Made by a program: the position numbers and the translations under genes. Source: a virus (Duplodnaviria > Heunggongvirae > Uroviricota > Caudoviricetes). Taken from it: 13,774 nucleotides of DNA. The notes beneath the pieces are model-generated. The model was not told the DNA's origin, searched no databases, and worked only from the letters and a program-made list of their open reading frames with translations. Below, piece by piece: positions 10,475 through 10,990 of this stretch (position 1 is the first letter of the stretch; every line of letters starts with the position of its first letter). The stretch is taken from the IMG/VR virus record IMGVR_UViG_2778261448_000011, positions 1 through 13,774 of that record; one strand, given 5' to 3'.

Positions 10475-10990
10475 ATGGCGTTAACACACCGCGAACTCTG
10501 TCAGATTGCGTATAAGTTCCTTAAGCGCAACGGGTTCAAGGTTTGCTTTCATGACCGCTTTATAGCTGTAACCAGTACCGGAGAACAGCCAGATGCTATG
10601 GGATTCAGAAATTCAGCATCATGCCTGATAGAGGCGAAGTGTTCTCGTGCTGACTTGTTGGCAGATAGAAAAAAGCGTTTCCGTAAAAATCCGTCTCTTG
10701 GAATGGGCGACTGGCGATTCTTTATTAGCGAGCCGGGAATTATTTCAATTGAGGATTTACCACCTGGCTGGGGATTACTTCACGTTGTTAACGGAAGAGT
10801 ACGGAAAGTACATGGGTGGCCCAAGGGTAATTGCTGTTGGGGTAATCCTGACGATAAGCCATTTACTGGAAATAAGCAGGTTGAATGCGATTACATGTTA
10901 TCTGCATTAAGGCGCATGGAGTTGAGAGGGCACCTTAATGAAATATATGACGGTGTAATTGTTAATAAGAAAGAAGGAAACGCGGCATGA
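10475..10990 (+). CDS. Putative PD-(D/E)xK-fold nuclease-like protein
   Basis: 171 aa; candidate motif D (QPDAMGF) followed 13 residues later by ExK (IEAK), spacing typical of PD-(D/E)xK nucleases. Confidence 0.45.
   Translation: MALTHRELCQIAYKFLKRNGFKVCFHDRFIAVTSTGEQPDAMGFRNSASCLIEAKCSRADLLADRKKRFRKNPSLGMGDWRFFISEPGIISIEDLPPGWGLLHVVNGRVRKVHGWPKGNCCWGNPDDKPFTGNKQVECDYMLSALRRMELRGHLNEIYDGVIVNKKEGNAA

Follow-up and report, generated by a model that had tools for sequence, protein, structure and literature searches.

Which function is served by the small, nameless gene that stands between the recombination genes and xis of a lambda-type prophage? We addressed this question on the IMG/VR virus record IMGVR_UViG_2778261448_000011 (Duplodnaviria; Heunggongvirae; Uroviricota; Caudoviricetes), positions 1 to 13,774. 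This whole stretch of 13,774 nucleotides, which is a segment of a lambda-type prophage, is referred to as the window. An initial annotation, made from the letters of the DNA, had proposed that the gene encodes a PD-(D/E)xK nuclease-like protein and listed as possible roles the missing recombination exonuclease, a resolvase, or an effector of defence or anti-defence. Both the predicted fold and the near-invariance of the motif residues support the nuclease identity, and we conclude with high confidence that the protein is a PD-(D/E)xK nuclease of the MmcB/Hjc type. The listed roles do not stand equally: that of recombination exonuclease is contradicted and that of defence effector disfavoured.

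The motif that suggested a nuclease is indeed present: Q38-P39-D40-A41-M42-G43-F44 is followed by I52-E53-A54-K55, with 13 residues from D40 to E53. By itself it is weak and needs independent support because of its high chance frequency. The loose pattern D-x(8-30)-[DE]-x-K appears in 64% of 20,000 shuffles of the nuclease protein (against 7% for the PD-containing pattern and 3.7% for the exact spacing). It is also found in 11 of the 20 open reading frames (ORFs) of at least 100 residues in the window, a count obtained with a greedy ORF caller and including some spurious ORFs. What lifts the motif above chance is that it is conserved in homologues and placed correctly in the predicted fold. 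For the conservation we aligned 109 cluster representatives sharing 31 to 60% identity with the query. All 109 have D40, D60, G78 and R81, whereas E37, E53, K55, D64, K67 and R70 are each found in 108, E137 in 107 and H5 in 106. The catalytic residues pointed out in the initial annotation, D40 (109/109) and E53 with K55 (108/109), are thus conserved among homologues. Moreover, D40, E53, K55, S57, D60, D64, R81, P96, G100 and L101 are invariant in an alignment of the temperate-phage, lytic-phage and plasmid versions with a genuine MmcB. The stretch from S57 to R70 aligns with TSIEDFRVDRK of Sinorhizobium meliloti MmcB and with SSRADFQAD of 3dnx. One position within it departs from the family: L61 (codon 10655-10657) is Phe in 103 of the 109 members (S-R-x-D-F), and Leu is also seen in close relatives from E. 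coli and Klebsiella.

The AlphaFold2 model, based on a 37-sequence alignment, reaches a mean predicted local distance difference test (pLDDT) score of 86.8 and a predicted template modelling (pTM) score of 0.80, and disorder is limited to the last 12 residues. Its topology is that of the superfamily core (helix, three strands, helix, strand): a helix at residues 5-18, strands at 23-26, 41-45 and 48-54, a helix at 58-65 and a strand at 80-85. Within this arrangement D40 is found where strand 2 begins, E53 and K55 where strand 3 ends. Searching with Foldseek, we matched phage proteins annotated as MmcB-like among viral models and obtained weak matches only in the PDB, to Hjc ST1444, R2 endonuclease domains and AF1548. 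Nuclease domains of Can2/Card1 and the restriction enzymes SdaI and NgoMIV are also among the structural matches, with unrelated Rossmann-like folds scattered lower in the list; RecE, lambda Exo and YqaJ are absent from the 60 best. Model and matches agree on a restriction-endonuclease-like fold, which is the check that had been proposed for the nuclease identity.

Profile comparisons narrow the relationship down. The profile of the 109-sequence family matches 3dnx with an E value of 1.8e-5 and Hjc (1hh1) with an E value of 0.09; the latter alignment puts D40, E53 and K55 on D42, E55 and K57 and continues into a common S-R-x-D. Using hhalign, the family aligns to S. meliloti MmcB over residues 23-109 with 90% probability (E 1.5e-6). 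Here the genuine MmcB was a full-length protein from a Sinorhizobium replicon that scores 265 bits to PF06319; a search with the 56-residue 3dnx fragment yielded partial MmcB proteins only. The structure 3dnx (SPO1766) is the representative of DUF1052/PF06319/COG5321 (PMC3424549), and a prediction from 2005 linked this DUF1052/PF06319 family to the archaeal Holliday-junction resolvases (PMC1189080). Both the AD-E(V/I/C)K motif and the 3dnx-like overall structure that mark MmcB-like proteins are found here. When the 109 members are scanned singly against Pfam, 60 give weak Hjc matches, 33 weak MmcB-like matches and 8 AHJR-like matches, none of them convincing. The proteins therefore form a large family that is a distant sister of the MmcB-like proteins and belongs to the Hjc-like branch of the superfamily.

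These relationships were reached via profiles, single-sequence searches having failed. The query has no match in Pfam (even at E values up to 10), NCBIfam or PADLOC, so that the family lies outside these curated libraries, and phmmer against PDB sequences gave chance-level matches only. In PHROGs it corresponds to phrog_9263 and phrog_631, both without a function, and weakly to phrog_5429, "DNA repair protein" (E 0.003). A word-indexed search returned 324 close relatives, all named hypothetical. Apparently wrong names also occur ("minor tail protein", "EaA protein", "adenylosuccinate synthase" and "structural protein", among NC_050152.1, MH445381.1, PV565041.1, KX581092.2 and plasmid NZ_LC081338.1).

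The family is nevertheless very common on mobile elements. Scanning with a 37-sequence HMMER profile, we found 3,291 cluster representatives (50% identity, metagenomes) at E <=0.001 and 2,472 at E <=1e-10; the cluster of the exact protein alone holds 1,363 sequences on at least 1,000 contigs. The gene is carried by 931 of 5,426 complete E. coli genomes, in 1,049 chromosomal and 250 plasmid copies. At a DNA identity of at least 95% it is present in 137 phage records, mostly Shiga toxin (Stx)-converting phages but also P7 and TL-2011b/c. Protein-level matches (tblastn) extend to 643 phage records and 864 plasmid records, 411 of these plasmids being conjugative.

Coordinates are collected in Table 1. 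The gap between the stop codon of the Ead/Ea22-like gene and the ATG of the nuclease gene is 7 nucleotides, and the nuclease stop overlaps the start of the next gene in an ATGA at 10987-10990; gap and overlap indicate that the gene is embedded in an operon. No sigma-70-like promoter match is present in the 4.3 kb from 8500 to 12800 (shuffles give 5.9 ± 2.8). The N-like, cIII-like, RecT and Gam-like genes upstream, as well as xis and int downstream, are on the same strand. Lacking a promoter of its own, the gene is part of the leftward early (pL) operon, where it lies between the Ea22 and DUF551 genes. This operon would be antiterminated by N, and the nuclease would accordingly stay silent in the lysogen and be produced within minutes of induction or infection.

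Table 1. Coordinates of the nuclease gene, its conserved motifs, other genes of the window and homologues on IncF plasmids (positions refer to the window, except for the last three rows, where they refer to the plasmid loci).
Feature	Position	Strand	Remarks
Nuclease gene	10475..10990	+	171 amino acids; ATG at 10475, TGA at 10988-10990, stop included
E37-Q-P-D40 codons	10583..10594	+	Conserved acidic pair; D40 is the predicted first catalytic Asp and aligns with Hjc D42
E53-A-K55 codons	10631..10639	+	(D/E)xK element where strand 3 ends; aligns with Hjc E55/K57 and IECK of 3dnx
S57-R-x-D60-x-x-x-D64-x-x-K67-x-x-R70 codons	10643..10684	+	Charged helix after ExK, common to MmcB (S-x-x-D-F-x-x-D-x-K)
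G76-M-G-D-W-R81-F codons	10700..10720	+	Conserved loop into strand 4
CI-like repressor	3029-3742	+	
N-like antiterminator	5069-5476	+	
cIII-like gene	6488-6673	+	
RecT	7200-8111	+	PF03837
Mu Gam-like / Sipho_Gp157 end-protection protein	8089-8577	+	phrog_253; directly after RecT
149-residue protein (phrog_614)	9341-9790		No Pfam match
Ead/Ea22-like upstream neighbour	9787..10467	+	Pfam PF13935, E 2.6e-34; same operon
DUF551 downstream neighbour	10987..11667	+	Pfam PF04448 at the C-terminus, E 4.3e-19; translationally coupled
DUF4752 gene	11664-11951	+	
Xis	12508-12726	+	
Int	12704 to window end	+	
IncF homologue, L051 (CP091406.1)	6977-7495		
IncF homologue, L054 (NZ_OM179752.1)	5977-6495		
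IncF homologue, L050	6977-7495		

Several small plus-strand genes fill the space between the Gam-like gene and Ea22, and the minus strand of the window carries a DnaB-like helicase, an O-like replication protein and Cro. The seven window ORFs of at least 200 residues are the helicase, the O-like protein, CI, RecT, Ea22, the DUF551 protein and Int; no methylase is among them. Three terminator-like hairpins are seen just upstream of xis, including 12230-12283 and 12458-12477 (+), and the one at 12458-12477 can also be read on the minus strand.

The surroundings of the gene in other elements were compared in a set of 37 loci from genomes and phages, mostly Gammaproteobacteria, which had been found with a closer alignment. 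A CI-like gene is near the nuclease gene in 21 of them, the family of the downstream gene in 15, phrog_614 in 14, an O-like gene in 10 and Ea22 in 9; 5 loci have a C5-methylase family no more than about 8 kb away. There is no universal partner and no conserved adjacent sensor or regulator among these loci. In phage P7 an annotated C1 operator precedes the operon that contains the gene (upf89.0). Shigella phage Ss-VASD has it together with RecT and an adjacent RecE-like exonuclease (phrog_149, E 5e-63; phrog_434), and in Vibrio phage X29 its surroundings comprise a recombination exonuclease, an RNase T-like exonuclease, RusA, Dam and SSB. Lytic phages carry it in replication modules. In two genera of the Ackermannviridae (Cba120 and Bue1) the DNA primase gene directly follows it, in Vibrio phage SSP002 two helicases and Pol I directly precede it, and in phage PTm1 a helicase gene and ribonucleotide reductase genes are nearby. 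The Cba120 gene (orf107, L042 4980-5597) abuts the primase gene and the Bue1 gene (L046 3980-4618) overlaps it. These Ackermannviridae homologues measure 205 to 212 residues, of which tblastn aligns the N-terminal 110 or so (the nuclease core) only; in the multiple alignment, insertions expand the segment after about residue 110. A split into two consecutive ORFs, which may be a frameshift or a sequencing error, was observed in Alteromonas gracilis (L036 7986-8458) and in PTm1 (gp045/gp046, L045 4001-4467).

On IncF plasmids a homologue with 64-68% identity starts at the stop codon of psiA, in an arrangement that is intact in two loci (L051 and L054). The gene order of this leading region is ssb, DUF905, parB-like, psiB, psiA, the nuclease homologue and hok, and on one IncF plasmid ardA, an antirestriction gene and an N6 methylase are nearby. 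The IncF version was found in 197 plasmid records, 185 of them predicted to be conjugative. A hok/gef gene follows the homologue in L051 and L054, and the region of L050 is broken by insertion sequences. Since plasmid pS88 has the order psiA, flmC, (hok), yubN, older annotations may have named the plasmid homologue "flmC"; this is not confirmed, and current records read "hypothetical". Other elements show related settings: near the tra operon and a Dam-like methylase on a conjugative Acinetobacter plasmid, beside methylases on Pseudomonas megaplasmids, and adjoining TraC in presumed integrative elements. The common theme across all these elements is a location in DNA that is expressed first on entry or reactivation.

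Within enterobacterial prophages, the phrog_614 protein, Ea22 and a DUF551-type gene form a loosely conserved accessory block around the nuclease gene, the 149-residue phrog_614 protein usually being encoded one or two genes upstream. The family of the downstream gene (15 loci) combines a conserved N-terminal part with swappable C-terminal domains (DUF551 ending in HWMPLPxxP, or unrelated tails). The DUF551 gene lies directly upstream of the nuclease gene in X29, and a distant member (P0221) is a natural fusion with DUF551. Salmonella prophage proteins P0091, P0093 and P0104 join Ead/Ea22 to the nuclease domain; these and two further Salmonella proteins (P0097 and P0102) carry QHLQ/NRQ repeats in an Ead/Ea22-like segment at the N-terminus and an ELELE repeat tail at the C-terminus. 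Other sequences from E. coli and elsewhere (P0009, P0100, P0020, P0033) are in-frame chimeras that have lost some of the nuclease's N-terminus or are joined to the DUF551 gene. The chimeras point to frequent recombination in the accessory block. Fusions with TniB and with a dATP/dGTP pyrophosphohydrolase are each represented by one cluster representative and are possibly gene-calling joins. Some of the E. coli fusions are recombinant truncations, and as a clue to function the fusions say little for the most part. Ea22 or DUF551 as an obligatory partner was considered and rejected: Ea22 is found in only 9 of the 37 loci and a DUF551 ORF is adjacent in only 5, although fusions exist.

From these observations we infer activity, substrate and biological role as follows. 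The product would be a small stand-alone, metal-dependent PD-(D/E)xK endonuclease from the branch that holds Hjc and the SOS-induced repair nuclease MmcB (DUF1052). By analogy with Hjc, residues D40, E53 and K55, probably aided by E37 and D60/D64, would form a Mg2+ site that hydrolyses the phosphodiester bond. Its target would be a DNA structure rather than a sequence, that is, branched, stalled or damaged (for example cross-linked) intermediates. Such intermediates would arise as the DNA of the element starts to replicate and recombine, often in a host that has just suffered the damage by which the prophage was induced. As a whole, this explanation of a structure-acting nuclease working early after entry or induction is the one we lean towards, by a modest preference. 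A role in structure processing or repair is suggested by the location in replication modules of lytic phages and by expression after the SOS-linked induction of lambdoid prophages. We propose only tentatively that the element employs the enzyme to process structured or damaged DNA while replicating, recombining or repairing its own DNA.

A number of observations weigh against this explanation. The family stays below the Pfam gathering thresholds of both relatives: for PF06319 (22 bits) the best member has an E value of 6.5e-5, and for PF01870 (21.1 bits) the best member, the X29 homologue, scores 20.4 bits. The glutamate that Hjc uses in helix 1 (E12) is not kept, as position 7 is E in only 49 of the 109 members and the conserved residue there is H5. 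In the model the acidic residues were located by strand order, and their clustering in space is a prediction. Even for MmcB itself the substrate is no more than hypothesised, a part in cross-link repair being proposed (PMC9578287). Every database copy looked up is labelled hypothetical. In literature searches that covered MmcB and DUF1052, the exo-xis region, leading-region genes, and the names yubN and flmC, we found no study of the family; the exo-xis papers searched for nuclease terms (a modelling paper and a phi24B paper) do not mention it. The relationship to Hjc, which cleaves four-way junctions, makes the resolvase role named in the initial annotation possible by analogy. A plain resolvase would however be redundant beside the RusA-like resolvase that accompanies it (with the recombination exonuclease) in X29 and beside NinG, which is two genes away in locus L029. 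Finally, the slot after psiB-psiA, with anti-restriction genes and methylases around it, suits an anti-defence or SOS-modulating role just as well.

In that alternative the protein is an establishment or anti-defence effector, made on entry, which attacks a host component that threatens the incoming DNA: a nucleic-acid part or signal of a defence system, or the RecA-dependent intermediates that trigger SOS. We consider it rather unlikely, although the leading-region context lends an anti-defence or establishment role some support. Apart from the position at the psiA stop, in the company of ssb, ParB-like, psiB, hok, ardA, antirestriction and N6 methylase genes and on records that are nearly all conjugative (185/197), it can draw on the enrichment of anti-defence genes in plasmid leading regions (PMC11541004). 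The methylase neighbours (Pseudomonas megaplasmids, Acinetobacter plasmid, C5 methylases in 5 loci), the TraC neighbour and the position in phage early operons fit it as well. On the other hand, a leading-region location is guilt by association, maintenance genes such as ssb and parB-like being present there too. Lytic phages have the gene within their replication module and not with the host-takeover genes. PADLOC gives no match, though its library covers defence and not anti-defence, and we know of no anti-defence protein with such a fold and mechanism. A broader version, in which phages, P1/P7, integrative conjugative elements and IncF plasmids share an early-entry tool of mobile DNA that neutralises the host response, appears similarly improbable to us; such a tool may dismantle RecA-made joint molecules or stalled or cross-linked intermediates and thereby keep SOS or a DNA-sensing defence from being set off. 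The methylase neighbours might also recall a restriction-modification pair with the C5 methylases, a candidate that was rejected with a methylase in 5 of 37 loci and none in the window. Less probable than the anti-defence alternative is that the prophage uses the protein for defence or superinfection exclusion, as a nuclease against the DNA of phages or plasmids that compete with it. In its favour, stand-alone PD-(D/E)xK nucleases often serve as defence effectors, the structural neighbours include nuclease domains of Can2/Card1 as well as restriction enzymes, and a variable accessory region near xis and int is a typical moron site. Yet neither the protein nor its neighbours match PADLOC at E values up to 1, bar a chance-level KwaA match of one neighbour, and no conserved sensor or regulatory partner is adjacent. 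With the promoterless stretch around it, the gene belongs to a pL operon that the repressor silences in the lysogen, and host protection makes little sense for strictly lytic phages or plasmid leading regions, where the family is also found. The defence role listed in the initial annotation is therefore disfavoured.

The other role proposed there, that of the missing exonuclease partner of RecT which resects double-stranded ends, is contradicted by the data and in our view most improbable. It arose from the window, where RecT and the Gam-like/Gp157 protein are present and no RecE-, YqaJ- or lambda-Exo-like gene is found, and recombination exonucleases do fall within the PD-(D/E)xK superfamily. 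However, the fold is that of Hjc/MmcB, about 2.4 kb and five annotated genes separate the nuclease gene from RecT upstream of it, and only 2 of the 37 nuclease-carrying loci have a RecT homologue. Ss-VASD (RecE-like, next to RecT) and X29 have separate exonucleases, and the gene also occurs in P7, IncF plasmids and lytic phages. As a partner of the single-strand annealing protein (SSAP) it was thus rejected, being neither adjacent to nor co-inherited with RecT and having no lambda-Exo/RecE fold elaboration. Given the absence of such genes in the window, the recombination module of the prophage consists of RecT and the Gam-like protein without a nuclease of its own; in Ss-VASD, RecT is followed by the RecE-like gene instead. 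It might also be argued that the protein is a degenerate, non-catalytic member that serves as a DNA-binding regulator or architectural factor, as some PD-(D/E)xK folds have lost catalysis and the activity of the family members is itself a prediction. We hold this to be very unlikely: the triad and further acidic and basic residues are near-invariant across 31-60% identity and all element types, and a near-invariant triad is the signature of an active enzyme.

With a fold, an active site and a nearest characterised relative, a "hypothetical" gene gains a testable enzyme identity. What is new is the assignment of a very common mobile-element gene to the MmcB/Hjc-like branch, together with its early placement across elements; the fold family and its chemistry are themselves well known. 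The lead to follow is that four kinds of mobile elements place the gene in the DNA they express first, the slot after psiB-psiA being one such place. If the enzyme helps the element to survive DNA damage or host surveillance, it would bear on the induction of Stx phages and on the establishment of resistance plasmids. Stx-phage induction is classically provoked with mitomycin C, the very agent against which MmcB protects. Should the early-entry reading be true, the family would add a new class of enzymes to the establishment or anti-defence functions, acting alongside PsiB and PsiA. If it is merely another structure-specific nuclease of phages, the result is a useful annotation and little more.

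Of the known systems, MmcB is the closest. MmcB is an SOS-regulated PD-(D/E)xK endonuclease that guards Caulobacter against mitomycin C and cisplatin (PMC9578287). Both MmcB and the present proteins are stand-alone and about 150-175 residues long, and they have in common D...E-x-K-x-S-x-x-D-F-x-x-D-x-K, an invariant R before strand 4 and P...G-L at strand 5. Their induction would also be alike: MmcB responds to DNA damage, and the nuclease gene would be switched on by prophage induction, which damage usually triggers. The family differs from MmcB by an extra K-K-x-F-R-x-x-P-x-x-G-M-G segment, the conserved H5, E37-x-P-D in place of A-D, W99 and a C-terminal helix with conserved E137, R146 and R147. 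Furthermore, MmcB is chromosomal and mostly found in alpha-proteobacteria (PMC3424549), whereas the family is carried by phages, plasmids and integrative elements of many phyla. Hjc (PF01870; 1hh1, 2eo0, 1ob8) is of similar size and its catalytic residues align exactly, but its C-terminal half is different. Compared with the type II restriction endonucleases SdaI and NgoMIV and with Can2/Card1, the nuclease has no CARF or other sensor and no separate DNA-recognition domain. RecE, lambda Exo and YqaJ, finally, share with it the superfamily and the lambdoid genomic region, though the nuclease gene is not adjacent to RecT.

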